Origin: a bacterium
GTDB lineage: Bacteria > Patescibacteriota > Minisyncoccia > Phycocordibacterales > UBA2100
NCBI GenBank assembly: GCA_009924895.1
Contig: RFQR01000004.1
Span: 16,328 to 80,327 of the forward strand
DNA: 64,000 nt
Reading direction: 5' to 3'
The notes beneath the pieces are model-generated. The model was given only the letters and a program-made list of their open reading frames with translations. It was not told the DNA's origin and did no database searches. Position 1 is the stretch's first letter. Each line of letters opens with the position of its first letter. The position numbers and the translations under genes were made by a program. Below are positions 41,288 through 63,883 of this stretch, one piece after another.

Positions 41288-41728
41288 ATGAGTCGTGGGA
41301 CACGGAAATATTATGCCGGATTATCAAAGAAGCAGGCCACCCGCAGAAGGGGCGAAATCGCGCATAGAAAAACCATGGATTGGCGGGATCCGGCTGCGTA
41401 TATTCCATTTGGAACGGATACGGGGGTGAAAACGCGGCAGTCAGGGTATACGGCCAAATGGAAGCGAAAGTTTCCAGGCGCAAAGTCATTGGATGAAAAG
41501 GCTGCCGCGACGGGGGTGCCTTTGAAATATATTCGCGAATCCTATAATCGCGGAATGGCTGCCTGGCGCACGGGTCATCGACCAGGCGCCACACAACAAC
41601 AATGGGGATATGCGCGTGTGCATTCGTTTCTTCTATGCGGAAAGACGTATCATACAACCGATTCCGATATTGCATCGGAGGCGAAGAAATCTTCCAAAGG
41701 GGCGAGAGATTGGTTTACCAGGTGCTAA
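41288..41728 (+). CDS. Hypothetical conserved-looking protein (146 aa)
   Basis: Distinctive block PLKYIRESYNRGMAAWRTGHRPGATQQQWGYARVHSFLL. Family not identified. Confidence 0.5.
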   Translation: MSRGTRKYYAGLSKKQATRRRGEIAHRKTMDWRDPAAYIPFGTDTGVKTRQSGYTAKWKRKFPGAKSLDEKAAATGVPLKYIRESYNRGMAAWRTGHRPGATQQQWGYARVHSFLLCGKTYHTTDSDIASEAKKSSKGARDWFTRC

Positions 41729-44700
41729 AATCGGATAATGGGGAGTTCTTGAAACCGCGCGTGCGGAACGGGATAACTTACCCGTGTTCTATCGTGCACT
41801 GTTGTCCAGTATACACCATTTTGAGAGCTTTCTAGTTTCCATCGAACCGGGTCACCTTCAATTCCATTGTCAGGATTTGCAGTTGTCCACGTAAAACCGT
41901 CCATGAGCACTGCATATGGAAATGCAAATACGAGTGCCTTTTTATTCATATCCGACCATCCCTTTCGGTAGCCATCCCCGTTCACATCTTGTATATCTCC
42001 AACCCAAGTCCCCAAGGGATTTGTCACTTTGGCATTGCGTATATCGATTTCCTGATTCCCCAAGAAGAAACGAAACTTTGATATATGGACGCTTGGATGA
42101 TCAGGGGAGCGGGTTTTAATGGGTCGAAAACGGATATATTTATAACTATTTCCCTTGTTTGTATGGGTATGAACAACCGCGTCTGCTTGACGAAGGGGCT
42201 CGTCATACATAATGTTTAGATCCCCCCCTTTGTTGCGTATTCTATCGAGGCCAAAGGAGGGTGTATCTAAGGGAAATGTGGATTCTGTTATTTGGATGGG
42301 TGCGCCATAGTTCGTAAATGCCTCTTTATTCGGATTTACATAGGGATTGGAAGTATCTGAAACGGTTGTTGGCATTTTCACAGAATCAAACGATACAGGT
42401 ATATTCCAAGATGATTCAGAAAAGGGTATTACAGCTGTATCATTCGTTTGCATGGGCTTGATAGCATAGCAAGTGGCCCCTGCTAGACCGTTGGATATGG
42501 GTTGTTTGTTGACTCCTGGAGAACCAGTGCCACAGTCCGTTGTGACAGGAAAATATCCAAAGGATTTTATTCGAATACTAGATGTTTGTTTATCGAGCCT
42601 TCCTAAAGAAGATGAACTAGACGTGAGTGTTAAAGAATCTCCATCAAACCCACCATCTGAAAATAATGTTACTTCTAAACCGGTGGGCACATCTACTTTA
42701 TACACCCCGTCGTTTATAATTCCAGATGTTTTCATTGGATCTATACCATACTCCCCTGCCCCTAATGAAACTATGGGTCCTTCTGTTCCATCTGGGTTTT
42801 TACTGAAAAAGGTTGCCACAGTGCCCGAAATCCATCCAGGAGAGCACCAGTGTGCCCCCGCGTTTTGAGCTGCTACAAGTTGATCATATGTCGCAAGCCC
42901 TCCACCGTATGTGCTACATATATTTGCCGCATCTTTTTGCGAAGAACTAGTTTTAACATGAAATACTTCAAATGCCCTATTTCCTGTAGATATTGTATTT
43001 ATATTTCGGAGAAGATCATCTGGGGGTTGCGGAAGAATAGGGAACATGTTCACAGCATCAAATGCGCATTCCGCAAGTTTGGAGGGTTGCATTGTGAAAC
43101 GCATTCCGCTTGTGGTAGATGAACTAACATTATATGTATTTCCAGAAGGTATCAGTGTATCTTCTTGATATGTAATATCACATGTATTTGCGTCAAGGGT
43201 TCCAACACGTGTGATGGTATTTATTTGTTTTTTGTGCAGATTTTTACTTGTGTAATAGCGTATCATTTCATTTAGAACAGCGGTGTCTTTACAGGATGTA
43301 GTTGGACATGATCCTAAAAATCCAATCGCACCTGCAGAGGAAAGTGTATTTTTTCGAAAATCAGGAAGAATCGCGGCAGTAGAAGAAGTTACTGCCGATA
43401 TATTGGAAGAGAGACTATTCATCATGCTAGATAAAGTTGTTTCAACACCCGTTTTAATTTGGGACGCATATTCCATTGGTTTATAAAGTTGGGGTATATT
43501 GTCTTGAATAAATGTGCCGCCGCCTTTTGTAGAATCTTTTGCAGTATCATATTGAATACTACAGTCGGATATATTCGTATGAACATATGTGGAGAGTTTA
43601 ACACCCTTTATCACTCCAGAGGGGAGCGGAGTCGTCACAGGGACTTCTGCACCTGATTTATTATATGAGAAAGAGCCCTTTTTTACCATGACTCCTTTTG
43701 CATTTGCAATCGTAGAATCATAATTTATATCTGCTTCTATATCACATTGATACTTATTTGCTGTAACCGCGCGAGTGATTCGTAAAATGGACCCAGGAAC
43801 AGTTGGATCATTGTTATATTGGTCTGCTATACGAAATAGAACATCCAAATCTTCACATGTTGTTTTATTTCTACATCCTCCACTTGCATTATCTAAATAG
43901 TTGTTGGTAGGCACGGGTTTTGGAAATATGAAAGGAGTATCCCATATACCCATATCGTTTGGCTTAGGCATAAACGCAAATCCAGAAATATCAAATACTG
44001 CATCATCGGAACCCCATAGACCTTTATCTATTGTATATGGGAACTTCGCTGCTCGTGAAATAGATGGTTGGGGTTTATTTGCTACATCATCCCATGGTAT
44101 TTCATCCCATATTATATCGCATTGCATATTATTAAAATAACTAGTTCTTGCAGATCGAATCTTGTCTATACGCAATGTATATTTCTTTATATTCACATCG
44201 GGTGCCTTATTCCCTCCTACATCTATAGTATTTGTTAACTTAATATCTCCTGCGTCTACAGCATCTATATAGTCATTCATTATGCGACGAAGAGTATCAC
44301 GATCATTGCATGCAAATCCGATATTTGTATTGTATGTATATTGTATGGTTGGAGCATAGTTAACATTTCCTGATATTGCGCTATTTGTTTCTTTCGGGCC
44401 ACAATTGAATTCAGAAAGAAAAGATGTGACGCAACGTGAATCCATTGAAAATCCAGAAATACTAAACGTTCCATTCGATGTATCATATGTGTAGAAGAAA
44501 CGACCCACGACTCCTTGAATAGGAGGAAGAACTGCCGCAGCAAGTTGTTCTTCTAGTTTTGCCACATTTGATTCATATGAGTTTCGTGCCTGATCGAGTA
44601 TATCTTGGGACATTTGTGTCGACTTCTGAATATTTGTATACTTGTCTTTTATTTCTTTAATTCTATTTTGTATATCTGTCGTATCGGATTGCTTTTGAAG

Positions 44701-46197
44701 ATCAAATCGCAGGTCTAGAATTGTATCTCCTATGGTTGAAATGTGAATTATAGTACTCATAATATATTTGCCATTCATAGATTCATAGAACGATTGTGCA
44801 ATAGAATCTAACATAGCCTTGTTGTTAATATCGAGCCCTATTCGTTGGCCATTTACCGTGGGTATCATAAACTTAAGGGTATTGACGGATTTTTCTAAAA
44901 GAGATGAATCATTTATATATTTTTGTTTCATAATACGGATCGTGCGGGAATAAATCCACTGTATTATGAATGTGCGCGCCGCATATGGAAGTAATCCAAG
45001 CATATCGTTTGTAAATAGGGTAGAACAATGCCCATTGTTGAATGATTTATTTTCCTCTGATACAACTGTTTTATAATCGGTCCCTTGTACGGACTGTATC
45101 AACTCTGTGCGACAAAAGTGTTCCTGACCTGTGCTTGAACGAATATACGGCTGTAAATCATCATATCGTATATTTATGAATTTATCTATATCATCTGTTG
45201 CGCCCAGAAATATTTTCTTACATAGATCTATACTTCCTTTCATTTGATTCATGGCCGTATCCGTGATTGTGCCAACATAATGGATATTACAATTCATGTT
45301 TTGCAGTTGGTTTACATCATATCCTCCGAGTTCATATAGGAGATTTATAGGAGATGTTATAACGAGGGTGGAATAGAGACTACTATTTGCCATATCAGGG
45401 CGTGCCTGTATCCAAGAGCTTGGAACGCGTAAATCCGAGGCGGCCGAACCATGATTCTCTATGACGTATTCATATACTCTTTCAAGGTCAATAAAAGGGA
45501 AACTGTTTGTAGAAATATTTGACGAACCATTGAAGGATATAACTAACGGCGAAATAGGATATACAACACCATCTACTGGCGAAGGTGTTAGGTTTATAAA
45601 GTTGGGAAATGTGACACTTTGCGTAATATCGGTAGATAAATAACTTTGGGAGTCCACAACCTGTCCCTGAGCATCCACTATGACGGCGTTCATACCTGCG
45701 ATACCACTTAACATTATATTATCCGAATCTCCTCTTCCTGTAAATATCACTTCCGATATTTGATATGTATTACCGAGATCCACCTGCCAATATGCATTTG
45801 AATAGTTTAAACCGGCTTGCCATGTCTTATTTAATCCTATTCTAGGAGTTGTTACACCATCTACTGTGACGGATATATCCGCAGAACCTGAAAAGTTAGC
45901 AGGGTTTACATTCGTTGAAACAGGTTTTTGTAATGCTAGATTTGTTCCATTCATATCTAGCACTTGAATTTGTGATATTCTCAAATATCCGTCACCGTTC
46001 ATCGGTGTATATATACGAACATATCGACCTAATGTAGTTTTTAAAGATTTTAAATAGGATTCCATATCAACATAGTTAAGAAAGCCGTCTGCCAAGGAGC
46101 CCCTGTTTGGTTTAGATATATGCCCACTTTGATGTATAATATATACGAGTAATAAGATAATTCCTATCCCTAACAGGGTGTAGATTATCCAGCCCAT
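41725..46197 (-). CDS. Giant type-II membrane protein (1490 aa) with F5/8 type C (discoidin)-like carbohydrate-binding domains
   Basis: N-terminal TM IYTLLGIGIILLLVYII. AYWQVDLGNTYQISEVIFTGRGD is the discoidin hallmark. A second galactose-binding-like domain sits at the C-terminus. Confidence 0.8.
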   Translation of the reverse strand: MGWIIYTLLGIGIILLLVYIIHQSGHISKPNRGSLADGFLNYVDMESYLKSLKTTLGRYVRIYTPMNGDGYLRISQIQVLDMNGTNLALQKPVSTNVNPANFSGSADISVTVDGVTTPRIGLNKTWQAGLNYSNAYWQVDLGNTYQISEVIFTGRGDSDNIMLSGIAGMNAVIVDAQGQVVDSQSYLSTDITQSVTFPNFINLTPSPVDGVVYPISPLVISFNGSSNISTNSFPFIDLERVYEYVIENHGSAASDLRVPSSWIQARPDMANSSLYSTLVITSPINLLYELGGYDVNQLQNMNCNIHYVGTITDTAMNQMKGSIDLCKKIFLGATDDIDKFINIRYDDLQPYIRSSTGQEHFCRTELIQSVQGTDYKTVVSEENKSFNNGHCSTLFTNDMLGLLPYAARTFIIQWIYSRTIRIMKQKYINDSSLLEKSVNTLKFMIPTVNGQRIGLDINNKAMLDSIAQSFYESMNGKYIMSTIIHISTIGDTILDLRFDLQKQSDTTDIQNRIKEIKDKYTNIQKSTQMSQDILDQARNSYESNVAKLEEQLAAAVLPPIQGVVGRFFYTYDTSNGTFSISGFSMDSRCVTSFLSEFNCGPKETNSAISGNVNYAPTIQYTYNTNIGFACNDRDTLRRIMNDYIDAVDAGDIKLTNTIDVGGNKAPDVNIKKYTLRIDKIRSARTSYFNNMQCDIIWDEIPWDDVANKPQPSISRAAKFPYTIDKGLWGSDDAVFDISGFAFMPKPNDMGIWDTPFIFPKPVPTNNYLDNASGGCRNKTTCEDLDVLFRIADQYNNDPTVPGSILRITRAVTANKYQCDIEADINYDSTIANAKGVMVKKGSFSYNKSGAEVPVTTPLPSGVIKGVKLSTYVHTNISDCSIQYDTAKDSTKGGGTFIQDNIPQLYKPMEYASQIKTGVETTLSSMMNSLSSNISAVTSSTAAILPDFRKNTLSSAGAIGFLGSCPTTSCKDTAVLNEMIRYYTSKNLHKKQINTITRVGTLDANTCDITYQEDTLIPSGNTYNVSSSTTSGMRFTMQPSKLAECAFDAVNMFPILPQPPDDLLRNINTISTGNRAFEVFHVKTSSSQKDAANICSTYGGGLATYDQLVAAQNAGAHWCSPGWISGTVATFFSKNPDGTEGPIVSLGAGEYGIDPMKTSGIINDGVYKVDVPTGLEVTLFSDGGFDGDSLTLTSSSSSLGRLDKQTSSIRIKSFGYFPVTTDCGTGSPGVNKQPISNGLAGATCYAIKPMQTNDTAVIPFSESSWNIPVSFDSVKMPTTVSDTSNPYVNPNKEAFTNYGAPIQITESTFPLDTPSFGLDRIRNKGGDLNIMYDEPLRQADAVVHTHTNKGNSYKYIRFRPIKTRSPDHPSVHISKFRFFLGNQEIDIRNAKVTNPLGTWVGDIQDVNGDGYRKGWSDMNKKALVFAFPYAVLMDGFTWTTANPDNGIEGDPVRWKLESSQNGVYWTTVHDRTRVSYPVPHARFQELPIIRF

Positions 46198-46233
46198 TCT
46201 ATCTTGATTCCTTATTTTTGATATGTGCCTTCT

Positions 46234-47178
46234 TTACGTAATCAAGTTTGATTTCATATTTTGTAAAAGTTTTGTAATATTTATAAGTCTATCGGATGTT
46301 GTTTGTAAGGTTGTATTTACACTATCACCGGATATGATAGATTTTGTGATAAACTGTATTATATCCGGAGATATATAATAGGGAGATAGCTGACGCACTT
46401 TTGATAGTAGGGTCGATGTATCTACACCCACCATTGTTGCATCAAACTTCAAACTATCGGCTGGGTCGCAGCGTAAGAGTGAATATACAGTATTAATCGT
46501 ATATAAGTTGGAAGATAGATCTACTTCTTTCGTAAAAAGGCTCGCATTCATGTCATCATATTTTCCTGGAAGTGGAAACATCTTTTTTGTTTGTGTAGCA
46601 AGATTTATACAGGCAGTAGATAATGATTTGGGATTACATTGGGTTTTGAGCATAACTTGATAGTTCATATTCTCATCTTGCATGGCGGCGGCAGACTGTA
46701 TATGCTTCGATGCACCCGTTGACATATAGTTTAGGGAACTTAGTTTGGATAGATACATATCGCGCAAACTTTTCAGGGCATTGCACGATTGTGCTCGCGG
46801 ATTGTCTGTCCAGCTATTCTTTGTATTTTGATCATACAAGTTGACACTCATTTCACTTTGAAGTTGGTCGTAGTTTGTAAAAAGTGCATTTCTAGCCGCA
46901 GATACATCGTAGTTATATCGCGCCAGTGCGTATATAGATATATAGAGGGGGAAGCTAAGGGGCATCGTATCCTTTGAATTTGTTGGGTCTGGATTACTTA
47001 CGCGTTGAATCTGTGCGGATGTTGTAGGCGTATCCTTATTCTTTACAATATCCCAAAATCTAGCAGGTGTGTCTGAGGACATCGTATTAAATCCCTCGGA
47101 TATGCTGAATATATGTAATAAGAGTATGGCTATACTAAACATAGCGAATATGTATATATATGGATATATCTTTCGCAT
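46234..47178 (-). CDS. Membrane-anchored hypothetical protein (314 aa)
   Basis: N-terminal TM YIYIFAMFSIAILLLHIF. Confidence 0.6.
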   Translation of the reverse strand: MRKIYPYIYIFAMFSIAILLLHIFSISEGFNTMSSDTPARFWDIVKNKDTPTTSAQIQRVSNPDPTNSKDTMPLSFPLYISIYALARYNYDVSAARNALFTNYDQLQSEMSVNLYDQNTKNSWTDNPRAQSCNALKSLRDMYLSKLSSLNYMSTGASKHIQSAAAMQDENMNYQVMLKTQCNPKSLSTACINLATQTKKMFPLPGKYDDMNASLFTKEVDLSSNLYTINTVYSLLRCDPADSLKFDATMVGVDTSTLLSKVRQLSPYYISPDIIQFITKSIISGDSVNTTLQTTSDRLINITKLLQNMKSNLIT

Positions 47179-47191: not shown

Positions 47192-50100
47192 TTAGGATAT
47201 TTTTTGTAATACTTCGTTCACTTTATTACTTGGTTTTGCAGTATTATAAGAGAATAAGGACGGGGTTATTCGCTCCACCCCTTCTACAAAGACAGTTCCA
47301 GCGGTAGTTATGGATACTGTATCGGGATCAAACTCTATTACTTCTTTTAAACTGTTTGTATCACATGCATCTGAAAAAGATGCTGTCAGATATGTGCTAA
47401 TACCTGTATTTATTGAAGAGTTGCTTGCAATAGACGATTTCTTCGTAACATCCTTCATAATCATATATTCACACATAGAGGGAGTTCTTGCAAAACTTTG
47501 TTGTATTGCGGTAAGGGTTTGCAGTGTCGTATTTACACTCGTATCATAGGACGATGTCTTACTGGATTGCTTGGAATCAAATGCCCTTTTAATACTTGAG
47601 ACTACATTTGGGTCGCGACAGTTTATTTGACACTGTGGGTTTGTATAGGGTGTATCCAAAGAACTACTAGATGTTAGCCCATATGCATTATTGCTTATAT
47701 CGGTATATGAGGATATACTTATGAGATTGCGTATAGCTGTAGGTGTTAAGGGTGTAGCACACACGGATCCTGCATTGTTTATATTTATTTTAAATCGTTT
47801 TGCAAGTGTATTTGTTTGAGTTACAATGGGATTATATAAAATATCATCATATGCATTATATAACTCTGAAAATAATACATCACATGTAGCATCGATATTA
47901 CTTGGGGGAGCCCATTCATACTTCTTCGTTTTTGTAGTGCCGATTGCAGAAATTTGTGACATTGTACGAGTTGTCTTTATAGTTTCATTGGACGCGGGTG
48001 TCGTGCTTGCATTGTAATATTCCATAATCATATTCATTACAGTTGGATTATTGCATTTTAGTTGCTTTATTGCTTGCGCCCCATATACCGAACATGCTTC
48101 TAAGAATACTTGTGATGCGCCAACGGTGTTCGTTAGATTTATGACAGTGGTCTCTGCTTTATTTACATTTTCGTCGAGGGCTTTCGTAGGATTTGAATCT
48201 ATGATCGGTTTGACAACGGATGATAGCATATTCATAATCTTATCCCCTATCGTATTAAATGTTAGTATACCGCCTACTGTATCTACTGATTGGAGATAGG
48301 GTGTATTTTCTTGAATAAAAGTTGAATCATAGCTATAGTTACTAAAACTATACGAGCAGTTGGGAAATGTCAATCGGATGGCATTCGGCGTGCTTATATT
48401 GGGAAGATTTGTTTGCCATATAGGAGTTGCATTTATATCATTGTCTACTAAGACTTGCATATATGTTTTTGAAATATTTGTAAGGGGGGCATCGAGTCCT
48501 GGGCAATAGTCAATAGCATTGATTGGATATACTGCGCCCAAATCAATTTCAATATATTCATTAGATTGTGTATTATTTCCTAGTTCCCAATAGTCTCCTG
48601 CATTGCGAGGCCCCGTATATCCATCCACGATTGTATCAGGTGTGCTTGCTCTATATTTTTTAGATGTAGCAAAAACAGGTTTGTTTAATGCAATATTCAC
48701 ACTATTGGACCACACAACAATCTGCGAAACTGCAAGGTATCCTGGGCCTCCATTTGCTGCAGGAGTCATACGCACATATCTTCCATATGCGATACCGTTA
48801 TCAGATGTTCTATCTGTTACACCTACCTGTGCTGAAACTATGTCTCTACCCACTGTTGTTTTTCCATTACCTACATCTCGAAGCATTTCTACGTCATAGT
48901 CGCACCTATCTGTGGAACGTGTAACAGCACGCAACACCTTTAGAATCTGGTTTGTGTTGTTACTATTAAACTGTTGTATAAATGTATCGATTTGTCGTTT
49001 GTCTTGGCAGCGGGCGGGACAGCTACCTAATGTAGTTTCGATTGGTAAAGCACGAGGCACTACAAACGGGGCTTTGGGCACATTAAACTGATTTATCACT
49101 TGATCCGTGAAGTCGACATATTGTATATAATCTTGATTTGAAGTTGCCTTTTCCGCCACTTGTGCCCCGTTTGCATCCAATATTTGGATTCGAATCCCTG
49201 CGTTACGGGATGTATTAGGGGAATCTAACATTCCATATATATATACAGTATTAATCAACTGAAGATATCCTAAATCTATATCCACATACTCATCTTGCCC
49301 ATTCATTTGAAATATATTTTCTACTCCATTTAACACAGCGATTGTTCCATCCACGATTTTAGTAGGCCCTTTTCCGCCATTTGAACTGGTAGATCTCGCA
49401 TATTTATTCAACGCGGCGTTTTTACCTACGCTATTATATACAACTACTTGCGATAACTGTAGTATTCTATCATTTGCTGTAAGAGATGGTCTTATACGAA
49501 TATAACGACCCTGTATTTTGGGAACTGATAAAGTTCTTCGCGTAGGATATATTGTTTCCTGTGTTAAAGGGTCTGTATAGGAACGGAGTGGATATTGGTT
49601 CCAATCTTGTGAAAAGTCGTCTGTTGGGGCCCATACACATGTGCTTTTATCTTTTATCTCGTATCTTCTTACAACTTCTTCAAACTGTATATCTGTGCCC
49701 TCTACATTTCTAGATGGATCATACGATACACTTGTCCATTTATAATAACATCCATTCTTTCCACGTGGTTCAATACCTAATACTGTTTTAATATGTTTAT
49801 TTCGCAAGGTTTGATACCGATTTATAGTATCGCGCAATACAAACTCATTGGTGCACAATAACTCCGTTGTTATGACTTTTTCACAAAATGAAAAACTAGG
49901 AACATATCCGCTTTTATCCGCGGCCCTTTTCTCGTATATAGGTCCGTGATTAATCGTATAGTAATCATTATTTGTGGCGACGAATAATCCATCTTTTGGA
50001 TTGCCTACGATTTGATGTTCAACGGATTTTCCTAAAGAGACGGATACTGCATGGGCTCTATCATATGCATCTGTCACTGCTTGTCCTGCCATACCTCCTG

Positions 50101-51379: not shown

Positions 51380-51427
51380 CTACTATAAGAATATATCTGA
51401 TAGTAAAATGTATTTACGCAAAGTGTA

Positions 51428-53996: not shown

Positions 53997-54261
53997 GAAA
54001 CATCTTTAGTGTTTCATCCAGATTTACAATAAGAATATCCTTGTGTTTCTCTTTTATTTCAGTATAGTTGTCGATTTGTGATTTCAGTTGTAGGCATATT
54101 TCTTCAGATGCCTGTTGTGCCGGAGAATCTTGTGCTGTTTCTTGCGGTATGTCTTGAAAGCCATCCCTTTGTTTTGAGTGCAAGTATAGTATATATCCTA
54201 TACAGCATGCTAGAATGTAATATAGACCATATCGTTGAAAATGCTTTATAAGTTGCTCCAT
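53953..54261 (-). CDS. Small membrane protein (102 aa)
   Basis: TM GLYYILACCIGYILYL. Confidence 0.4.
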   Translation of the reverse strand: MEQLIKHFQRYGLYYILACCIGYILYLHSKQRDGFQDIPQETAQDSPAQQASEEICLQLKSQIDNYTEIKEKHKDILIVNLDETLKMFHGLFTKHGCETYGL

Positions 54262-54303: not shown

Positions 54304-56649
54304 TTATTTCCAGGGAGTATTACATTTATATTTATTTAATACATTACGTAAGTTTGTTCTCTCATTTGTTAGATTTGTAACAGTGGGAGTAATGGCACCA
54401 AGGTTTGTGCGTATATTTGTATAATTCGTATTCACATCCGTATAAGCTCTTTTAATTTGAACGCAGCTTGCTGTAGTTGCATCCGTGCACGACGGATTTG
54501 ATGGATTTTGAATACATGCATTTACAGCACCGTCATTACATTGTAATCCTTTATAGATTTGATCTAATGTTTGTGTAGCATTGTTTAGTTGTGTATCCCC
54601 ATTCATCAAACCTGTTTGCATATTTACGATATTTGTTAAATTATTACTTAAATCGGTATACGACTTCATAAATACATCACAACTAGAAGAGTAGTTCATT
54701 TGCACCCTGTTCGCATATCCAGTATTATTTAAAATATCGCGAACACTTTCACAAAAATACATCCCCGTCGTTGGATCATCCGCTATACAAATTTGATCAT
54801 TCGGGTCGAGGCTATTATTCAACATATTTGTAGCAAGCTCTTCAGTATCACATAACCATTTATTATATGAACCAAAGGATGTTTTTGTGCAGGAAGTTGC
54901 CTGAAATCCTTCTACGCAGGATCCCCCAATCTTTTTTGTTCCAGGCGGACAGTCATATATACACGTGCCTTTATAGAATATTTCATTTGACTTACATATC
55001 TGTGATTCCACTTCTGAATCGCGCGTGCGCGAGATAGATTTCGGAGTACAATTCACAGAATCCGATAGCTCATTTTCTGTACATGTTTTTGCACACTGCC
55101 CATGTATGAAATGTTCATCCGTATTACAAATAGGGACCTTTTTTTCCGTTTTGAAAGGGGGTTTAAATGTTCGAATAGTATTTTCGGTTACTCCGTCTGG
55201 AAATGCGCATGCTCCCTCTTTGGGAGTAGTTCCTGTAGGACATACGGAATAACAATTATCAGGGTTCATATGCAAATAATGACCCAAAGGACATTGTTCT
55301 TTCCTATTCCACTGCCCTTGGCGGAAGGGTTCTATATCTGTAAACTGTGCTTCAGGCGGTTTTACACCGTAACATGTTGCAGTGTATGTTGCATCACCCT
55401 CTAGGCCTGCGTCCGCGATTTGTTCCGCAGTGGCAAGAACCCCTCCGTATCTTTTACACTTGTATACTGCTTCTTCTGACCCCCCCTTTACACGATATAC
55501 TTCTTTTTCAGGCATATATTCGGAGACATCCCCGCTCCCAGCTTTATTACATGTTGCAGCTTCTATCATATACACTTCATATCCAGAAGGGCATGAATAT
55601 AATACAGGATACTGTGTATTCGTGGCTCGGGTCGGGCGCAACACAGGGATTCCATTACACATGGAACCATTCTCTACATATCCTTCTGGGCACTTTGAAT
55701 AACAACTGCCATTTGCGCGCGTAAACCCGTCTTTGCAGGCTGCAGTATCTGCTATCCGCGTGTTAACCATCGAAGAGTTGGAACTGAAACATACGACATG
55801 TTTCATTGGCTGAGTTCCAGGGAGCAGAGTCCACGAAGCGGAAGGAGTTTGACTCAATGAAAAATATATCTTATCATTTGTTCCAACACCATATATCATA
55901 TGATTTGTTAGGGATATCTGTTTCATGGCAGCACCCTTCAGTTCTCGCCAGTTTGGTGACACCGTCACATTCGTATCTGCGTAAAAGACTGTATTCGTAG
56001 AATCCAGCACCGCTACATCGGATCCATCAAAGACTACTTGTAGGAATGTTCTACCGGCAAGTGTGCCTGAGACATTGACCCATACAGATTCTATAAAGTT
56101 GGGCGTATAATACAGGACGTTCTCGGTTCCTATTGCATAGGCCGCCCCCCCTTTTATAGATATATATGTATATGTATTGCCTTCATATGCAGGTATAAAC
56201 AGCGTGGATTTCGTTACATCTTTTATATATATCAGTTTCTTCGATTCATTGATTCCAGCTATCATAGGAAAATCCATAGATACCTGTGTCACCGAACCGT
56301 CCAATATACTCCATGTATAACTCGCTCCTGTCAATAAAGTCCCATAATGGGCTACATTTGCATTATCTACACCTACCAGTTGTCCAGAAGATCCTGATAC
56401 TTGCTCAAAGCCTTCTGTGACGGCTTTCCAGTTTGGTATATTTGTGAGCCCATCATTTGCAATGAATAGAGTCCCATTGGGTGTCAGACCAGATAAGAGA
56501 ATACTTTCCATATTCGCCATACCTTCACATGATGGGTATAATATCCAGAGTCCTACTATACATAAAATGACTCCGAATAGAAATATATATAACATGACCC
56601 CTCCTACTAAGAACCTGGTTCTTATCTTGTGTACAGGACACGGTATCAT
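54304..56649 (-). CDS. Cys-rich membrane glycoprotein (781 aa)
   Basis: N-terminal TM. Many paired Cys and N-x-S/T sites. Its ATG overlaps the stop of the upstream GT4 gene (ATGA). Confidence 0.75.
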   Translation of the reverse strand: MIPCPVHKIRTRFLVGGVMLYIFLFGVILCIVGLWILYPSCEGMANMESILLSGLTPNGTLFIANDGLTNIPNWKAVTEGFEQVSGSSGQLVGVDNANVAHYGTLLTGASYTWSILDGSVTQVSMDFPMIAGINESKKLIYIKDVTKSTLFIPAYEGNTYTYISIKGGAAYAIGTENVLYYTPNFIESVWVNVSGTLAGRTFLQVVFDGSDVAVLDSTNTVFYADTNVTVSPNWRELKGAAMKQISLTNHMIYGVGTNDKIYFSLSQTPSASWTLLPGTQPMKHVVCFSSNSSMVNTRIADTAACKDGFTRANGSCYSKCPEGYVENGSMCNGIPVLRPTRATNTQYPVLYSCPSGYEVYMIEAATCNKAGSGDVSEYMPEKEVYRVKGGSEEAVYKCKRYGGVLATAEQIADAGLEGDATYTATCYGVKPPEAQFTDIEPFRQGQWNRKEQCPLGHYLHMNPDNCYSVCPTGTTPKEGACAFPDGVTENTIRTFKPPFKTEKKVPICNTDEHFIHGQCAKTCTENELSDSVNCTPKSISRTRDSEVESQICKSNEIFYKGTCIYDCPPGTKKIGGSCVEGFQATSCTKTSFGSYNKWLCDTEELATNMLNNSLDPNDQICIADDPTTGMYFCESVRDILNNTGYANRVQMNYSSSCDVFMKSYTDLSNNLTNIVNMQTGLMNGDTQLNNATQTLDQIYKGLQCNDGAVNACIQNPSNPSCTDATTASCVQIKRAYTDVNTNYTNIRTNLGAITPTVTNLTNERTNLRNVLNKYKCNTPWK

Positions 56650-58004
56650 TCGTCATCCTCTTTTACCGCTTTAAGACGACGAATCAAGGTTTCACACGAC
56701 GTTTCCCACGTATACTTGAGGACTTTTTCCTTCGCCGCTTTCCCATGCGCCTCTTTCTTATCATTGTTCAAGAGATACTCCTCCATTGCGAGACAGACAT
56801 CATGCGGATCACATGCCATCGCTTCCCCTCCCACGGGACTAAATGCCCCTGGCAGATAATAACGAATCGTGGGCGTAATAAGGGAAGAGTTCTCGGAACT
56901 ACAGAACTCCTTATAGCCACCAATATCCGGGACCACCTGAGGAACGCCTACACCCATTTGTTCAAACTGACATAACCCCCACCCTTCCCCATCCGCTGTA
57001 GAAATACCTACATCCGCTGCATTATAAAATAAGTTGATTTCTTCGTCCTTAAAGGACATGTTTTGCGCTGTGATAATAAGACGATTTGCGAACTGCTCAA
57101 TAGCAACACCTCGTAGTTTCAGTTCATGCGAAAAAATGTTAAATAAATCCCATCCACCTTTTTCCCCCCTGTCGCAAATACACAGAAGGTATATGGGCTT
57201 GGTAGGATACTTCACTAAGAGCTCCACAAATGCCATCAATAGAATATCATACCGTTTCCGTGGCTGATTACGATTTAAATTTAGAAAGAGAAAGACGTCA
57301 GGGGGCAACGATAACTGTTTTCTCGCCAACTCGCGTGGCACAGAAAAGAACTGCTTGGAGTTGAATCCGTGCAACAATACATCGACGGGTCGTGTAATGT
57401 TCTGGTCCTTCAAGCACTTCTTCCAATACGGACTAAATGCAAACACTCTATCTGCGTCACGATTCAAAATATCGAGAAATATTTGATTCTGTTTCGTATA
57501 TACTTGATCGCAATAAACCCATAGTTGAAAATTCCTAGGAATGCCTGATTTTCGAATAGCCTCCATAAACTGTGTGACGACCGCCATATCATTATATATC
57601 ATAACCACCTGGGGCTTTTTCTTTCGAATCACATCAGGAAGAATCCCATATCCAAACCCCTGTTGCAATGGTTTTTCCAAGGCTGCCACATCAATCACAT
57701 CAACACCCGGAGGATATGGGCGAAAGACATTGGATAGTTCATGAAACTTTTGAATGCCAAAATGAGTTATATGTAACCAGGGGTGTTTTGCAAGCTCCGT
57801 AAGAATACCATGTGATACTTTTGAATATCCAGTAAACTGATGGACATGTGTGCTTACAAGTAGAAATCGAAGTGTATCTGGGCTGGGCTCGGTCTTTGTA
57901 AACATTGAGCCAAACCCGATAGTAGAAAGAGATTGTGTTTCCGTTTTTGTGGCCAATAATGTTTCTAGATTTTTTAAATACTCGGGAAGATTGGGATCAC
58001 TCAT
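56646..58004 (-). CDS. Glycosyltransferase, GT4-like
   Basis: GEGWGLCQFEQMGVGVPQVVPDIGGYKEF is the E-x7-E motif. GT-B N-terminal Rossmann region. Confidence 0.85.
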   Translation of the reverse strand: MSDPNLPEYLKNLETLLATKTETQSLSTIGFGSMFTKTEPSPDTLRFLLVSTHVHQFTGYSKVSHGILTELAKHPWLHITHFGIQKFHELSNVFRPYPPGVDVIDVAALEKPLQQGFGYGILPDVIRKKKPQVVMIYNDMAVVTQFMEAIRKSGIPRNFQLWVYCDQVYTKQNQIFLDILNRDADRVFAFSPYWKKCLKDQNITRPVDVLLHGFNSKQFFSVPRELARKQLSLPPDVFLFLNLNRNQPRKRYDILLMAFVELLVKYPTKPIYLLCICDRGEKGGWDLFNIFSHELKLRGVAIEQFANRLIITAQNMSFKDEEINLFYNAADVGISTADGEGWGLCQFEQMGVGVPQVVPDIGGYKEFCSSENSSLITPTIRYYLPGAFSPVGGEAMACDPHDVCLAMEEYLLNNDKKEAHGKAAKEKVLKYTWETSCETLIRRLKAVKEDDE

Positions 58005-58029
58005 TCTTCCTAGTCATTGCTATGATACT

Positions 58030-61000
58030 TTAGACCTTTCTCCATTCTCCTACCACTTTATAGAAATTCTCACGACATTCCATCCATGACAAAAGGAGTT
58101 TCATACGATATGCTTCAAGCATTGTTTTGTTTTTCATAAGTTGCTCTATAAACTGGGCCGCATCCTTCCAGCTGGAGAGGGGTAATATTTGCAGATGCTC
58201 TGTTATCCAGTCAATCCACATACGGTTCTCCTCCGTTTTCACTAAAATGGGTATACATCCACATTCGAGTGCTTCATAGAAACGAAATGTCTCTGGATTC
58301 ATTCCATCGGGGCAGGGAACAAACACTGTATCCAGGAGCGTAGATATATACGCATTTTTGTCAAGGGATCCTGGATCATTCCAGTCGTTGAAGAACTGAG
58401 ATGTATATGTGCAGGAAATATCAAATAGGGGCTGCATATTGGTGCGCCGATTTTTCCAGTTCGTGCCAAAAAAAGACCATGCGAGTGTTCGAAACGGGAG
58501 TCTTGGTGTCTTTTCTAAGACATTTTTGGACCCCCCATGTAATGTCCAATGAAACCCAAGTGGAATCGTGGTGACTTTTGCGGGAAGTGTCTCACGAATA
58601 TAGAAACGCAGAACTTTCTCACATCCACTCAAATCATAGAGATCTATATCATCGTCTAACATTTCATCACTTAGATGGAGCACACGGAATTTGGCGCCGG
58701 CATCGGACCATCTTGTCAACATATGTGTAATTTTCGGAATATGAGGTCGCTGTAGTATTACGATTGGCGTATCCGTGGGAGGAGTGGCATCTACTGAAAT
58801 CTTCTCAATCGGGGCCAGGGAGGGCTTTCCAAATAAGTCGAGTAACCATTGACCTTCATGTAGGTGTGAAAAATCCAGGTTTTGTTCAGCGAGGCAGACA
58901 AACCGAAAGGGGAGCTTGACTGATGTAGAATAGCTCCTCTTTCGCATCCCTCGGCTCATATATGGCAGGCGCCGGACGTTGAGAACTTGGACGGGTTTCG
59001 GCGGAGCGCGGATCTCCTGTAGGGCCGCAGCAATATCCATCGGGGTATCTGGCAACTCTTTCGGTGTAAAACGCTCATCATTATTCCATAAGTCACTGTC
59101 AAACCCATCAATCCTATTGAAGTCATTAAACTGACTATTTGCATATTTCGGGTCGTCGTCTTGGTAGCAGCCGGCCACAATCGGGTCCAAGATATAGGAC
59201 TTTAGAATATTCACAGGATTACAAAGCACATGGTCCGCACTTGTCCAAAATCCATCCCTATCCTCGATCATCTGAATGATTTTCTGCGCACCCCGCTTTG
59301 TAAGTATATATGCATACGCGCATAAGTGAAAATAGCGCGTAGGCGTGGTTTGCCCCCAAAGTGTATTTTCTTGTATACGGCAAAAGGAGTCATTTACACG
59401 CTCTTTGATTGTATCAAAGCTTGCTCGATTGGGTGGAAGCACGCCTCCCAGATATAGAATATCGTAATCTTCTGGAATATCCTCTACGGCCGCCTTCCAT
59501 GCATTTTCCCACCCAGGACGAAGCTTGACATCATCCTCCAAAATCAAATAGTTTTGAATATTTGTATGTTCATGTGCCAGTTTCCACCAAAGTCCTAAAT
59601 GACTCAGGGCACATCCAGCCACCGCCTTTTTCCAGAAAAAGTCATTGGATTTCAGGACGCGCTGGACACTCGGTGTCAACTCGAGCGCGCGACCATCTAT
59701 TGCAGACCAACGCTCGACGCGCCCTTGGAGTTCTGGGCAGTTTTTCCAAAGGCGTTCTAGGCGATCTGCGCGACGGTCGAGATTAATAACATATGCATCA
59801 TCAATCTGTTCTGTAAATGGGATATGCGCTTGGAAGTTCCCGCGATGCATATACAGGGAACGACCGGATGTAAATGTTTTCCGGAGACTTCTATCACAGC
59901 ATACGGGATCGAGTGGATACCGTGCAACCGAATGACGCATGGCGAGAATACTCAAAATGCTCTGATCGTGGCGATGGCCGTAGGGTTTTCCATCTGGACC
60001 GACGCCGGCCCATTTGGGACCTACAAGAACTTCGCGTCGTTTTGCAAGGGCCATGGCTTCTTGAAAGAGGTGTGTGGCCGGGGCAACGCCCGCGCGATAT
60101 ATTATATTTGCTGCTTGAATTTGTTGAGCCGCTAGTTCGGCACCGGTGACATGAAGGGCTTCACAAAACTCGGGAGAACACCAGCGCTTGTTTTCCTCTC
60201 GAGGATCTTCTAGGAAACAGAGACCAGATGCCTGCGCTTGTCGCATCCAGGCTTGTGGCCAACGACATAAAAAGGATCCGGCGTCGGTATAGAAAATGAT
60301 CTTCTTTGCAAATTCCTTGCGTCCACACACCTCGTTGAGAATCCATATCTTCCAACCAAAATGTTGAGGATCCCAGAAATCCGTAAAAGCATCTGTAGGG
60401 GGAGTTGTATCTGGAAGAGACTCAAACGCGGCAAAGGGAAACTTGGATTGTAGAACAGCTCCTGTATCTTCCGGCACATCTGAAGAAAGAAATACGAGGG
60501 CCTTCAGTTCCGGCATGGCCTGCGTTTGTGTTCCAACGGAAATGAGCCAGTGTTGCAGGGATGGGAGATACTTACGAGTGGCGCAGGTAACCATGAGAGG
60601 AACTTCGAGCGTGTTCTCTATATCGGGCTTCACCTCGGGCTTCACCTCGGGCTTCACCTCGGGCTTCACTTCGGGCTCCGCCGCTGCTACATATGTATCA
60701 CCTACGGTCACCGGGAAAGAGTTCACGGCAAAACCACCCAGGCCGAATATACGCCGAGCACATTCCGCCATCGTGCGATGACACCAGGCAACTTTATAGG
60801 GATCCAGTGCAGGAACTGCAAATCGTTTCAACCACTCGCTGTCATTTTCATCTACACGCTGCACAGCCTCTATGAGCTGTTCCGGTGTTGTAAACTCACG
60901 CGCATCAATACAACCAGACACATTAAAATCGCGTTCAAATGCGGGGTCGCCCCAATAAATAGGAATGCATCCGGCCGCTTTTGCATGCAGATATTTTTCT

Positions 61001-62781
61001 GTCACGTAGCCGCGGGCCGAGTTATTTTCATATGCCAAACAGAACTTGTAGTGTTTCAGGAACTCGAGTTTCTGTTGTTCCCCGCCCCCTCCTCCTGCGC
61101 CGGCAAAAATCCCATCCCCTACATTGTTAAAAAGGCGCCCTGCAGAATCGACGGGTTTATAGTCGGACAACCATTGGAATGCAGTATTTCGTATAGGATT
61201 TGACGGATTTGATACAACAAAGGCGCAGAATTTCTTCTTTTGTTCAAGTTCAGATGCATAGACGCGCGTGCAACGCTCCAAAGGAATCGGTTTCGGATTT
61301 ACAATACGGGAGGCGTCTGCTCCAAACCAATCAATCTCCAATATCCATAGGGGAAAACGGAGATATATCTCAGACATCATATCATAATGCTGAAATCCAA
61401 GATTGAGCTTGGCCTCGGGGATTGGTTTTGTGTTTTCTCCTGTGAAATGGATTTTGGGCAACTCTTTTGGAAGCGCTTTCCAGGCTTCTCCAAAAGGTCC
61501 AAATATTACTACAGAATCACCAGAACTTGCAGGACCACCTACAACTTTCACGGGGGGATCCAACTTTGCGCCTGCCGCGGAGAGCATCAGTGTAAAAAAG
61601 TTATATTCGGGGACAAAGTTCTCCCACATGTCACAAAAACCTACACGCAGTGTCGCGCTTTGGCTAGGAATAGGTGATACGAATCCCTCTAAGACCCCCC
61701 TCCAGGCTTTTTGAACTGTTGGCGAGAGAGGAGAGTATCTATGAATCATCTGCGCACGTATAGTCTGTATTACATCCGCTGCAAATATTCCACTTTTGTT
61801 AGTTATATCTTCTTTCAAACGTTGAAACGCAGAACACGCCTCTCCAATATGATTATCAGAATAATATCCGCGTTCAAGTCCAAATCCAATATCACGTAGA
61901 ACAGGAGAGTTATGAATAAGAGGGATTCCTGCCCATGCCACATCCAGGAGCATGGGTCGCACAAGAGTGAATCGAATATGCGATAGAACACAGCTCATAG
62001 GCTCTCGAACCCATTCTACACAGCGTTGGCGACCTACAAACTCCCCACTTAATCCTACTGCGTCGTCACTACAGTGTTTTACAATATTTTCCATAAAAAA
62101 CTTGCTTTTTATTATAGTATCTGCATTGTGAACCTTCCAGTTCGCAATCTCCATCCCACGCCGTTTTGCTTCACGCAAGATTACAAGGGGGACTGTAGCA
62201 GAGCTCGCATTTGTTGTATTCGTTTCTGCAATATGAACCTTCCATTGAGTATCTTCTTTCCATGTCTCGAGACCCATCATTCGTATATGTGTTGCAGCAG
62301 GGGAAGGGGACCAGAGAAAAGGGACGACGCGCACAGGAAGGCCTGAAAGCAACTCCACGATTTGGACCGAACCCTCTTCTGTTGCAGCAGTATCCATCAT
62401 CCAAACCTCCGTTAGCCCCTCGAACTCCCTTTTAGGAGTTATGGAGGTTGGATATAAACAGCACTCCATCTCTTGTAAAAGAAAGGGTTTTCGTATGACC
62501 CAAATAGATTGTTTTGTTAGCTTTGCTCTAAGTTCGGTTGTAAGAATCATACGATCAATCTCAAATACTATATCATATCCTGATGCATCTTCAATGGAAA
62601 TTATTTTCCAATAGGGTTCAAGATCCTTGCAATCATCCCACCAAGTTGCTTTCCCCGTCATTTGAATAAAATGGACTTCATGACCAAACTCTCTCATAAG
62701 CTCTGCGATTGCGAGGGATGTATTTGCCATACCCGAACTAAACATCGAGTGTTGAGCCGTTGCCAGTACTCCTACACGCAT
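58030..62781 (-). CDS. Multidomain glycosyltransferase (1583 aa): GT-B N-domain, GT10 fucosyltransferase-like module, GT25 module and further C-terminal GT-like module
   Basis: N-terminus MRVGVLATAQ...GHEVHFI (GT-B). YKFCLAYENNSARGYVTEKYLHAKAAGCIPIYWGDP is the FucT motif (FxLxFENS...GYVTEK). YVINLDRRADRL...GCALSH...LILEDDV is the GT25 signature. EVKPEVKPEVKPEVKP linker. Confidence 0.85.
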   Translation of the reverse strand: MRVGVLATAQHSMFSSGMANTSLAIAELMREFGHEVHFIQMTGKATWWDDCKDLEPYWKIISIEDASGYDIVFEIDRMILTTELRAKLTKQSIWVIRKPFLLQEMECCLYPTSITPKREFEGLTEVWMMDTAATEEGSVQIVELLSGLPVRVVPFLWSPSPAATHIRMMGLETWKEDTQWKVHIAETNTTNASSATVPLVILREAKRRGMEIANWKVHNADTIIKSKFFMENIVKHCSDDAVGLSGEFVGRQRCVEWVREPMSCVLSHIRFTLVRPMLLDVAWAGIPLIHNSPVLRDIGFGLERGYYSDNHIGEACSAFQRLKEDITNKSGIFAADVIQTIRAQMIHRYSPLSPTVQKAWRGVLEGFVSPIPSQSATLRVGFCDMWENFVPEYNFFTLMLSAAGAKLDPPVKVVGGPASSGDSVVIFGPFGEAWKALPKELPKIHFTGENTKPIPEAKLNLGFQHYDMMSEIYLRFPLWILEIDWFGADASRIVNPKPIPLERCTRVYASELEQKKKFCAFVVSNPSNPIRNTAFQWLSDYKPVDSAGRLFNNVGDGIFAGAGGGGGEQQKLEFLKHYKFCLAYENNSARGYVTEKYLHAKAAGCIPIYWGDPAFERDFNVSGCIDAREFTTPEQLIEAVQRVDENDSEWLKRFAVPALDPYKVAWCHRTMAECARRIFGLGGFAVNSFPVTVGDTYVAAAEPEVKPEVKPEVKPEVKPDIENTLEVPLMVTCATRKYLPSLQHWLISVGTQTQAMPELKALVFLSSDVPEDTGAVLQSKFPFAAFESLPDTTPPTDAFTDFWDPQHFGWKIWILNEVCGRKEFAKKIIFYTDAGSFLCRWPQAWMRQAQASGLCFLEDPREENKRWCSPEFCEALHVTGAELAAQQIQAANIIYRAGVAPATHLFQEAMALAKRREVLVGPKWAGVGPDGKPYGHRHDQSILSILAMRHSVARYPLDPVCCDRSLRKTFTSGRSLYMHRGNFQAHIPFTEQIDDAYVINLDRRADRLERLWKNCPELQGRVERWSAIDGRALELTPSVQRVLKSNDFFWKKAVAGCALSHLGLWWKLAHEHTNIQNYLILEDDVKLRPGWENAWKAAVEDIPEDYDILYLGGVLPPNRASFDTIKERVNDSFCRIQENTLWGQTTPTRYFHLCAYAYILTKRGAQKIIQMIEDRDGFWTSADHVLCNPVNILKSYILDPIVAGCYQDDDPKYANSQFNDFNRIDGFDSDLWNNDERFTPKELPDTPMDIAAALQEIRAPPKPVQVLNVRRLPYMSRGMRKRSYSTSVKLPFRFVCLAEQNLDFSHLHEGQWLLDLFGKPSLAPIEKISVDATPPTDTPIVILQRPHIPKITHMLTRWSDAGAKFRVLHLSDEMLDDDIDLYDLSGCEKVLRFYIRETLPAKVTTIPLGFHWTLHGGSKNVLEKTPRLPFRTLAWSFFGTNWKNRRTNMQPLFDISCTYTSQFFNDWNDPGSLDKNAYISTLLDTVFVPCPDGMNPETFRFYEALECGCIPILVKTEENRMWIDWITEHLQILPLSSWKDAAQFIEQLMKNKTMLEAYRMKLLLSWMECRENFYKVVGEWRKV
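60625..60680 (-). repeat. 12-nt coding tandem repeat encoding (EVKP)n linker inside the multidomain glycosyltransferase
   Basis: cgggcttcacct x4-5 on + strand. Confidence 0.85.
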
Positions 62782-62818
62782 CCTATCTCGTAAGATTCGT
62801 GGAGAAGCTTTTAGACCA

Positions 62819-63883
62819 TTAGCGTCGCAGAGTTGAGGTCCTTCGTATATATGATCGTTGTGTTTTACCTACTTTCGTAGCCCATTTTGTAGGCCCTTTC
62901 GTAACCCGTTTCTTAACCCGTGTTGTAGCCTTTTTCTTTTTACGTATAGAATGCATAGGAGTCATCATATGTCGCGTATATTTGTTGATAAGCGATAGTT
63001 CCGCTTCATATAACATGTGATAGTTTTCTAATGCTACCCCATGTATACTTTCCTTTACATGTATATGATACATCTTCTCATTTTTACCCATGGAACTCGA
63101 CCTAGACCTAGATTTGAACGGCGAAGCATTTTCAGACATTACGCTTAGATTAGATCGAATAGATTGCGTTCCATTTGTATCTATAGAACTAGACTTCGAA
63201 CTCGAACGTATATTCATAGAAATATCGCCTGTATGCAATCTCTCGAATAGTGTGCTTAGAAACCATTCTATATCATCATATGCATAGTCAAAAATATTGG
63301 ATGTTTCATTTCGGTCGGCCATATCATATGCGTGTTTCGCAATAGCACACAGGCTAAACATTGTTTCATCATATTTCAATCGCAGCTCAGGCGTATCACT
63401 CGACCCATAATACTCAAATACGCCAGCGTGATCTGGTTTTCCAAAAAACGTAGAGATAGTCTGCATATTCTCTGAATTAAATAGTATTGTATACATACTG
63501 AGTGGAAGGTGCAGCGCCATTCCATAGGCATATGCTATATATGGGATTTCTGGCATATATTGTAAAATGAAATATGTAAAAAAACCAGGATATTGCATAT
63601 TCTTACCTAGAATCATATCCAACTCCTCTTGCGAATCCCTGTCGCCGCCTTTCATAGACATTGGCATACCCCCCGATATAGGTAATAGCCCACCTACGGG
63701 AGGAATATCACCCAATACAAGACTGATATCCGCCTCTGAAAAATCTCCGCGTTTCATAATTTTAGTATGTATAATCTCTGGGCGAAATATAACTTTATCT
63801 ACCGCATTTGGAAAAAAAGTCCTGAATGTTGATAGATGCCTTATTTCCCTTCTTTTTAAATTTACAAGAAACGGATATTTCAT
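62819..63883 (-). CDS. Hypothetical protein (354 aa) with poly-basic C-tail
   Basis: C-tail KKKKATTRVKKRVTKGPTKWATKVGKTQRSYIRRTSTLRR. Confidence 0.6.
   Translation of the reverse strand: MKYPFLVNLKRREIRHLSTFRTFFPNAVDKVIFRPEIIHTKIMKRGDFSEADISLVLGDIPPVGGLLPISGGMPMSMKGGDRDSQEELDMILGKNMQYPGFFTYFILQYMPEIPYIAYAYGMALHLPLSMYTILFNSENMQTISTFFGKPDHAGVFEYYGSSDTPELRLKYDETMFSLCAIAKHAYDMADRNETSNIFDYAYDDIEWFLSTLFERLHTGDISMNIRSSSKSSSIDTNGTQSIRSNLSVMSENASPFKSRSRSSSMGKNEKMYHIHVKESIHGVALENYHMLYEAELSLINKYTRHMMTPMHSIRKKKKATTRVKKRVTKGPTKWATKVGKTQRSYIRRTSTLRR

Follow-up and report, generated by a model that had tools for sequence, protein, structure and literature searches.

What joins a run of glycosyltransferase (GT) genes to a set of very large, membrane-anchored, lectin-domain proteins on one strand of a giant virus genome? 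The question is raised by positions 41725–63883 of a 64,000-nucleotide (nt) stretch of contig RFQR01000004.1 (GenBank assembly GCA_009924895.1, contig positions 16,328–80,327; the whole stretch is referred to here as the window), which, judged by its genes, is part of an uncultured mimivirus-like giant virus with an Imitervirales-type gene set. This island is composite and contains a deeply conserved GT triad together with a clade-specific lectin cassette. We favour, at a probability of roughly 0.45, a reading in which the triad would carry out glycosylation in several cytoplasmic steps and be coupled to an adhesive, membrane-anchored layer of multi-lectin proteins on the particle; neighbouring fibre proteins would be further likely substrates.

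The island contains ten minus-strand open reading frames (ORFs) spaced by −44 to +64 nt, and the co-directional block extends beyond the window end, with a minus-strand bias that begins near 26 kb. An earlier interpretation made from the letters of the window (the sequence-only reading) had described consecutive minus-strand genes with minimal spacing, as is the case, but had counted eleven, and the gaps are too small for another gene. The 354-amino acid (aa) "basic-tailed protein" that it placed at 62819–63883 is merely the C-terminal part of a ~760-aa ORF that occupies 62819–64000 and starts beyond base 64000. Gene order is indeed kept among many relatives, as seen in a synteny comparison of related loci. 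The proposal of a self-contained system resembling the mimivirus glycosylation and fibril clusters has to be divided: the GT modules and the linked lectin giants are present, but nucleotide-sugar synthesis genes and a GMC-oxidoreductase-type fibril scaffold are both lacking, so that the island is neither a copy of a mimivirus cluster nor self-contained.

Gene order of the triad and the cassette

The relatives compared are contigs of giant-virus metagenome-assembled genomes in IMG/VR, up to 542 kb in length, and sequence flanking the window past base 64000 was taken from its source, the metagenomic scaffold DAMP20-1_SAMN10254614_METAG-scaffold_109 (ENA ERZ28575157; 80,549 bp, of which 10 kb are denoted L086). 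The triad is composed of a standalone DUF2827 GT, a five-module GT (1583 aa; 58030–62781, minus strand) and a GT4-family GT (452 aa; 56646–58004, minus strand). The standalone enzyme is encoded upstream of the five-module GT in 52 of the 53 loci with room for it, and the GT4 gene lies directly downstream of the five-module GT on the same strand in 64 of 83 related loci, with identities of up to 83%, making it the most conserved gene of the block. The triad is part of a conserved backbone in which it is followed by a DUF5824 gene on the opposite strand, a 362-aa gene, an NAD-ligase gene, a gene for a 635-aa membrane protein, and a poly(A) polymerase gene.

In the window, seven cassette genes encoding proteins of 781, 102, 149, 684, 1395, 314 and 1490 aa lie between the GT4 and DUF5824 genes. 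The DUF5824 gene (41288–41728, plus strand; Pfam DUF5824 E=7.8e-30) forms the downstream boundary of the cassette, and its homologue sits right after GT4 in relatives that lack the cassette. A 135-aa minus-strand ORF in the public gene call (41268–41675) is probably spurious, as the plus-strand DUF5824 gene that it overlaps is conserved in relatives. The cassette is present in 18–20 of the 55 loci with enough downstream sequence, all within one sublineage, and has a GC content of 36.5–40% versus 46–48% in the GT genes. Its proteins are 29–52% identical to those of three relatives (L001, L003 and L004) whereas the GTs are 65–83% identical, corresponding to an approximately two-fold faster divergence of the cassette.

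The same arrangement is found from the other side. Four contexts were fetched from distant members of the family of the first giant protein (giant 1, similarity down to E=7e-8), and all show one order: an S74 mini-fibre, the DUF2827 GT, the five-module GT, GT4, two small transmembrane (TM) proteins, giant 1, and giant 2. An alignment-based locus search from the giant side gave only contigs already found, and a locus search with the 684-aa protein gave no match. Among the contexts examined the triad occurs without the cassette, and the cassette without the triad is never seen. Functional dependence is argued chiefly from this asymmetry, and the finding that the cassette always adjoins GT genes argues for functional coupling of the two. 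An HNH endonuclease gene separates the five-module GT and GT4 genes in one distant relative (L092, 515–943).

Predicted proteins of the island

The 1583-aa protein contains a DUF2827 module (residues 7–361), a FucT_N plus GT10 module (382–654), an unclassified module (~700–990), a GT25 module (996–1174) and a C-terminal GT47/RXYLT1-like module (1427–1567), and has an (EVKP)4 linker encoded at 60623–60677. The DUF2827 match (PF10933; 94.7 bits) spans profile positions 8–359 of 362, and GT10 (PF00852, Glyco_transf_10) and GT25 (PF01755, Glyco_transf_25) score 68.7 and 55.6 bits against cut-offs of 23.9 and 24 respectively. The C-terminal module matches RXYLT1_C (30.3 bits; cut-off 27) and, below the cut-off of 33.4, Exostosin_GT47 (30.9 bits), with a profile-search match to exostosin-1 in the PDB at E=0.005. 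The GT4 protein contains an E-x7-E motif (EGWGLCQFE) and scores 37.3 bits against PF00534 (Glycos_transf_1; cut-off 26.4). The calls for DUF2827, GT10, GT25, RXYLT1_C and GT4 all exceed the curated Pfam cut-offs, and the five-module GT of the sequence-only reading is borne out for the DUF2827, GT10 and GT25 modules, with the C-terminal module a candidate. The third module has no Pfam family, no PDB match and no similarity to the other modules by hhalign; it is conserved, and counting it as a GT is an inference from its context.

Residues 424–649 of the GT10 module match Helicobacter pylori fucosyltransferase (FucT; PDB 2nzw) at E=1.7e-21 (1e-32 in a profile search), and the GT25 module matches mimivirus R655 (PDB 9crz; E=7e-11, profile 1.5e-14) and ColGalT1 (E=1e-4). 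Residues E95, R195, Y246, E249 and K250 of H. pylori FucT, which we take to be its catalytic base and GDP-fucose-binding residues, all align with identical residues in the 1583-aa protein. These aligned residues, E449, R531, Y592, E595 and K596, are invariant across 21 homologues (48–70% identical), as is E1082-D1083-D1084 in the GT25 module (EDD, a DxD-type metal site), and the full architecture is retained in 481 homologues. The GT modules are real and probably active. Neither the 1583-aa nor the 452-aa GT has a hydrophobic segment, signal peptide or TM segment, and with no hydrophobic segment they are expected to be active in the cytoplasm or viral factory. Fucose in the product is a plausible prediction from the GT10 module. 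A megablast search of the GT genes against a phage collection gave no match. A separate, second GT4-family gene (410 aa; 26638–27870, minus strand; Glycos_transf_1, 59 bits) is located 14 kb from the island.

The largest cassette proteins are two giants. Giant 1 is represented in the window by two minus-strand genes, one encoding a 684-aa membrane protein corresponding to its N-terminal half (51428–53482) and the other a 1395-aa protein corresponding to its C-terminal half (47192–51379). In many relatives the homologues of these two form one ORF of 1450–2150 aa; in the window they are in-frame and are separated by a TGA codon and 48 nt (51379–51428). The comparison indicates that this gene has been fissioned or fused repeatedly, because it is fused in many relatives and is split in a different frame in L001. 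Stop-codon readthrough at the split is rejected in view of both the different-frame split in L001 and a promoter-like, start-proximal element, TATAGTAG, which lies in the 48-nt spacer before the second ATG.

Only 125 representatives of the conserved core of giant 1 (residues 190–620 of the 1395-aa protein) were found among 1.84 billion protein clusters, and nearly all family members are 1300–3250 aa long. The 1395-aa protein contains 3.5 Cys-rich repeats of ~30 aa, repeated helix-plus-beta-sheet modules, a glycine-zipper hydrophobic helix (~385–440), and discoidin domains at ~624–760 and ~866–1010. An AlphaFold2 (AF2) model of residues 190–620 (predicted local distance difference test, pLDDT, 80; predicted template modelling score, pTM, 0.79) has two helix-plus-curved-sheet modules, one on either side of the glycine-zipper helix. 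Foldseek searches of the model against BFVD and the PDB give no significant match, and the recurrent weak matches (E 0.02–0.1, non-significant) are to the NTF2-like proteins VirB8, CagV and TcpC; on these matches the repeat modules of the giants would probably be NTF2-like. The 684-aa protein has an N-terminal TM segment and an EGF motif; a conserved segment reads IPWDxDN...WG, its long helices include a hydrophobic hairpin (~368–465), and the C-terminus is Cys-rich. Its AF2 model is poor (pLDDT 60) and mostly helical, and a PDB search with it was uninformative.

Giant 2 (1490 aa; 41725–46197, minus strand) contains an N-terminal TM segment followed by a DGF motif, a discoidin domain (~57–200), a coiled coil, a Link domain (1077–1130), a betagamma-crystallin domain (1138–1213) and a weak C-terminal galactose-binding-like domain, and a C...CD sequence module is repeated ~5 times in each giant. 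The Link domain scores 35.8–39.8 bits against Xlink (cut-off 27), covering only profile positions 1–60 of 92, and PDB matches include Protein S (1prr, E=1.7e-14) and the Link domain of TSG-6 (2e-4). Discoidin modules had been proposed in both giants, and one in each exceeds its Pfam cut-off: F5_F8_type_C at 37.9 bits in the 1395-aa protein and F5_F8_type_C_2 (PF22633) at 28.7 bits (cut-off 27.8) in the N-terminal domain of giant 2. The other two of the four segments are below cut-off (21.7 bits at ~624–760 of the 1395-aa protein and 12.4 bits at the C-terminus of giant 2). Most of 30 giant-2 homologues contain both F5/8C and Xlink, and the lectin modules on the giant-1 scaffold vary among homologues, being F5/8C, Xlink or neither. 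Such swapping of lectin modules between lineages is the pattern of receptor-binding proteins.

The remaining cassette proteins, all encoded on the minus strand, are smaller. The 781-aa protein (54304–56649) has a TM segment (14–32), tectonin beta-propeller repeats (~187–282; Tectonin, 41–44 bits), a weak Link-like segment and a helical C-terminus rich in N and T, and is Cys-rich, as first proposed, with 34 Cys; its homologues at the same position are 1000–1390 aa long, some with Tectonin plus Xlink. The 149-aa protein (53547–53996; TM at 27–45, then EGF) and the 102-aa protein (53953–54261) are paralogous small membrane proteins, with hidden Markov model cross-matches to both small ORFs in relatives. 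The 314-aa protein (46234–47178) has an N-terminal anchor, an EGF motif and 21% S/T, and its gene is kept directly after giant 1. Combined S and T content is 17–21% in the 781-, 684-, 1395-, 314- and 1490-aa proteins versus 10–11% in the GTs, and the 781-, 1395- and 1490-aa proteins have 15–18 N-x-S/T sequons each.

Five cassette proteins, and probably also the 102-aa protein, have N-terminal hydrophobic anchors, and in all six the anchor is followed by [ED]G[FM]: [ED]GF in five, including DGF after the hydrophobic segment of the 102-aa protein, and EGM in the 781-aa protein. The motif is a few residues from the anchor in most and ~45 residues from it in the 684-aa protein; in relatives it is usually EGFQ, preceded by K/R. 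A TM-[ED]GF signature is present in 56 of 153 N-anchored ORFs of the related loci versus 26 of 1241 control ORFs. This distribution points to a common targeting or processing signal, and it may be a lineage-wide sorting or cleavage signal for membrane proteins. The positive-inside rule gave an ambiguous membrane topology for the cassette proteins. The same anchor and [ED]GF(Q) motif occur elsewhere in the window in a 437-aa PSI (plexin-repeat) protein (22273–23586, plus strand), and a 137-aa ORF (4330–4743, minus strand) has the variant AGFQ. An Ulp1/vaccinia-I7-like cysteine protease is encoded at 16989–17870 (minus strand). Enzymes of this type in poxviruses and African swine fever virus cut after Gly-Gly or Ala-Gly, and by analogy with this preference xG|F within EGFQ could be raised as a candidate processing site.

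A short element is also shared at the gene starts. ATAG is located within 16 nt upstream of the start codon in 18 of 35 genes, against 6.9% for ATGs overall (binomial P~2e-12), mostly 0–5 nt from the ATG (e.g. the ATGs at 46197, 51379, 54261, 62781, 8689 and 19020), and seems to be a promoter or initiator element placed near gene starts throughout the genome. A reading of the island as an operon is rejected, as most of its genes have their own ATAG element. For the mimivirus early motif AAAATTGA there is no enrichment, with 2 sites where 6.5 would be expected.

Genome setting and neighbouring genes

Pfam matches in the window identify a poly(A) polymerase catalytic subunit, an NAD-dependent ligase and an SNF2/NADAR helicase, together with the Ulp1/I7-like protease, RNase III, patatin, ERCC4, XPG and SWIB genes and the mimivirus-derived families DUF5759, DUF5871 and DUF5824. 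The SNF2-type helicase (1401 aa; 9637–13842, plus strand) contains a NADAR domain (97.5 bits) between the helicase lobes, and a tRNA-Asn (GTT) gene is located at 23711–23785 (minus strand). The 635-aa protein (31543–33450, minus strand) whose gene is kept between the NAD-ligase and poly(A) polymerase genes has no Pfam family match; it has a central TM segment and an N-terminal array of ~6 copies of an ~11-aa KGVTTA(A/T)H(T/K)AA repeat, with a 33-nt period in the DNA. Two 100-N scaffold gaps with ends duplicated by ~55 nt appear collapsed in the window (~62826–62880 and ~39100–39154), such that the local letters are less certain in the last codons (3′ end) of the 354-aa ORF and in the region before 39206. 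The same genes are present in an independent Logan assembly of SRR8075959.

The genes that look most fibre-like are upstream of the island and outside the window. Within the flanking 10 kb (L086 1–10000), upstream of the five-module GT, the rest of the ~760-aa ORF is followed by the standalone DUF2827 GT, which is interrupted by an N gap, and a mini-fibre relative (140–196 aa) with GPT triplets. The opposite strand encodes a fibre-like protein of 848 aa, whose Peptidase_S74 intramolecular-chaperone domain scores 27.5 bits (cut-off 22) and which also has weak beta-solenoid matches, and an NHL-repeat giant of >1534 aa. S74 fibre genes recur beside the triad in relatives. The ~760-aa ORF has a basic tail, no TM segment and no Pfam family, and is found between the standalone DUF2827 GT and the five-module GT solely in the closest relatives (an ORF of 754 aa in L003 and, in the corresponding place in L001, probably one of 975 aa).

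Coupling, alternatives and known systems

In the reading that we favour, the standalone DUF2827 GT, the five-module GT and GT4 would together provide seven predicted transferase modules of a cytoplasmic line, none with a signal peptide or TM segment. By analogy with the chlorovirus multidomain GTs, these would assemble an oligosaccharide stepwise on viral structural proteins, independently of the host endoplasmic reticulum (ER) and Golgi, and the glycan would probably include alpha-1,3/4-fucose from the GT10 module and a hexose from the GT25 module. Six or seven bitopic cassette proteins, each predicted to have an N-terminal anchor, a K/R-rich stretch and an [ED]GF(Q) motif, would form a membrane-anchored adhesive layer of the particle. 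Here the two giants would be scaffolds of repeated, probably NTF2-like modules bearing grafted discoidin, Link and betagamma-crystallin domains, with tectonin in the 781-aa protein. The layer could bind host glycans for attachment or entry, or could hold the virus's own glycan or fibre coat, and the cassette proteins and adjacent S74 fibres would be substrates or partners of the GT line. What the sequence shows is gene structure, domain identity, invariant catalytic residues, strict linkage, and the rarity and rapid divergence of the cassette; the cytoplasmic action, substrates, virion location and adhesion are all inferred.

Several observations weigh against this reading. None of the ORFs in the window, whether inside or outside the island, matches a nucleotide-sugar synthesis Pfam family. 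No homologue in a cultured virus was identified; the best match of giant 1 in a Foldseek search of BFVD has E=0.045, and the giant-1 family is entirely metagenomic. The NTF2-like assignment rests on non-significant Foldseek matches, and a lumenal location of the large domains would put them out of reach of cytoplasmic GTs. Finally, many lineages have the triad without the cassette, next to the genes for ligase and poly(A) polymerase, which implies substrates other than the cassette proteins, and the adjacency could be historical.

The last point leads to the alternative that survives best, although we consider it somewhat unlikely: that the triad, as a core function of morphogenesis, glycosylates the capsid protein, the S74 fibres or both. 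The cassette would then have no functional tie to it and would have entered a permissive site in one clade, perhaps as an entry, fusion or internal-membrane scaffold apparatus. The triad is far commoner than the cassette and belongs to the backbone with DUF5824, the 362-aa gene, NAD-ligase and poly(A) polymerase, and both the lower GC content of the cassette and the individual ATAG motifs of most genes, with no operon, would fit adjacency without coupling. The glycine-zipper, the hydrophobic hairpin and the weakly VirB8-like NTF2-type repeats would also suit a membrane-complex scaffold. However, the cassette follows GT4 directly in four of four contexts approached from the giant side and in all 18–20 approached from the GT side, down to E~1e-7 between giants, and a linkage lasting through such extensive divergence is hard to explain without selection for it.

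A bolder form of the coupled reading, which we regard as unlikely, would make the cassette an unrecognised attachment and entry apparatus in a large, uncultured lineage of mimivirus-like viruses, in which an orphan family of anchored scaffolds of 1.3–3.2 thousand aa would swap their lectin tips and be targeted or processed through the TM-K/R-EGFQ signature, possibly being cut by the Ulp1/I7-like protease. These would be obligatorily coupled to the seven-module GT line, and the lectins would perhaps bind its glycan to give a self-assembling coat.

Display of the cassette proteins on the host, rather than on the particle, seems more improbable again. The anchored lectins would then be located in the host ER or plasma membrane, where they might alter adhesion, aggregate cells, block superinfection or capture glycocalyx, with the GTs remodelling host or viral glycans. 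Chloroviruses remodel the infected cell surface with hyaluronan, and the signal-anchor-like N-termini, many Cys residues and N-x-S/T sequons of the cassette proteins would be in keeping with such a role, as would their Link, discoidin and tectonin domains, which are typical of extracellular-matrix or innate-immune lectins. However, no hyaluronan or chitin synthase is encoded in the window, the GTs have no targeting signal, and the linkage to S74-chaperone fibre genes points to particle structure. That the giant ORFs are not real genes, or that the island is an assembly chimera, is hardly credible: in spite of the two collapsed 100-N gaps of the source scaffold, the same ORFs occur in the same order in dozens of independent assemblies and in the Logan assembly, domain scores are above curated thresholds, and the AF2 model of the giant-1 core is confident (pTM 0.79).

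A glycosylation line coupled to an adhesive particle layer would be of interest in several respects. Virus-encoded glycosylation has been experimentally characterised mainly in chloroviruses and amoeba-infecting mimiviruses, and the widely conserved seven-module line is a candidate for expression and assay. To our knowledge, the mode of attachment and entry of most environmental giant viruses is not known, and the rare family of giant lectin-bearing membrane proteins, being strictly linked to GTs, is a candidate for the surface or entry machinery of an uncultured lineage. The anchor and EGFQ signature could also predict the membrane proteome of these viruses straight from metagenomes.

The literature searched, with incomplete coverage, contains no description of this module, the giant family, the coupling to the triad or the TM-EGFQ signature, but several known systems are similar in part. 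A064R and A111/114R of chlorovirus PBCV-1 are multidomain GTs for cytoplasmic glycosylation of the capsid protein (PMC7826918, PMC9614988). As in these, the enzyme described here is a soluble polypeptide of several GT modules including a fucosyltransferase module, a likeness of architecture, and glycans are presumed to be built on structural proteins without the ER or Golgi. It differs from the chlorovirus GTs in the number of its modules (five, against three) and in their families (DUF2827, GT10, GT25, GT47-like and one unclassified), and is part of a fixed triad with two further GTs. The GT10 module also differs from H. pylori FucT (2nzw) in being one module of a 1583-aa protein and in lacking the C-terminal heptad and membrane-anchor region.

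In the fibril clusters of mimivirus and the Megavirinae (PMC10117803, PMC9614988) GT genes are likewise clustered and thought to decorate an external layer, and the GT25 module is homologous to mimivirus R655. The island differs from these clusters in its anchored lectin giants and upstream S74 and NHL fibre-like proteins, and neither the window nor the 10 kb upstream encodes a GMC-oxidoreductase-type fibril scaffold. The giants share with VirB8/TcpC bitopic proteins, scaffolds of type IV secretion, an N-terminal anchor followed by helix-plus-curved-sheet modules, a likeness based on weak matches, but are ten times larger and carry lectin modules. Tetraselmis polinton-like viruses encode a tail fibre and an FA58C carbohydrate-binding protein in their structural module (bioRxiv 10.1101/2025.10.09.676808), similarly linking a discoidin-type protein with a fibre gene, although the polinton-like proteins are small and soluble and are encoded in 20–40 kb elements without GT genes or membrane anchors.

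In bacteria, DUF2827 proteins are putative GTs of the cytoplasm, often encoded in tandem copies, and are constantly linked to trimeric autotransporter adhesins (bioRxiv 10.64898/2026.01.22.700529). There too, putative GT genes are linked with genes for long surface proteins of a fibrous or adhesive kind. The locus described here differs in being viral, in having one copy of DUF2827 fused to four other modules, and in its partners, which are S74 fibres and TM-lectin giants. The bacterial linkage of DUF2827 to adhesins is a suggestive parallel to the viral triad beside its S74 fibres.

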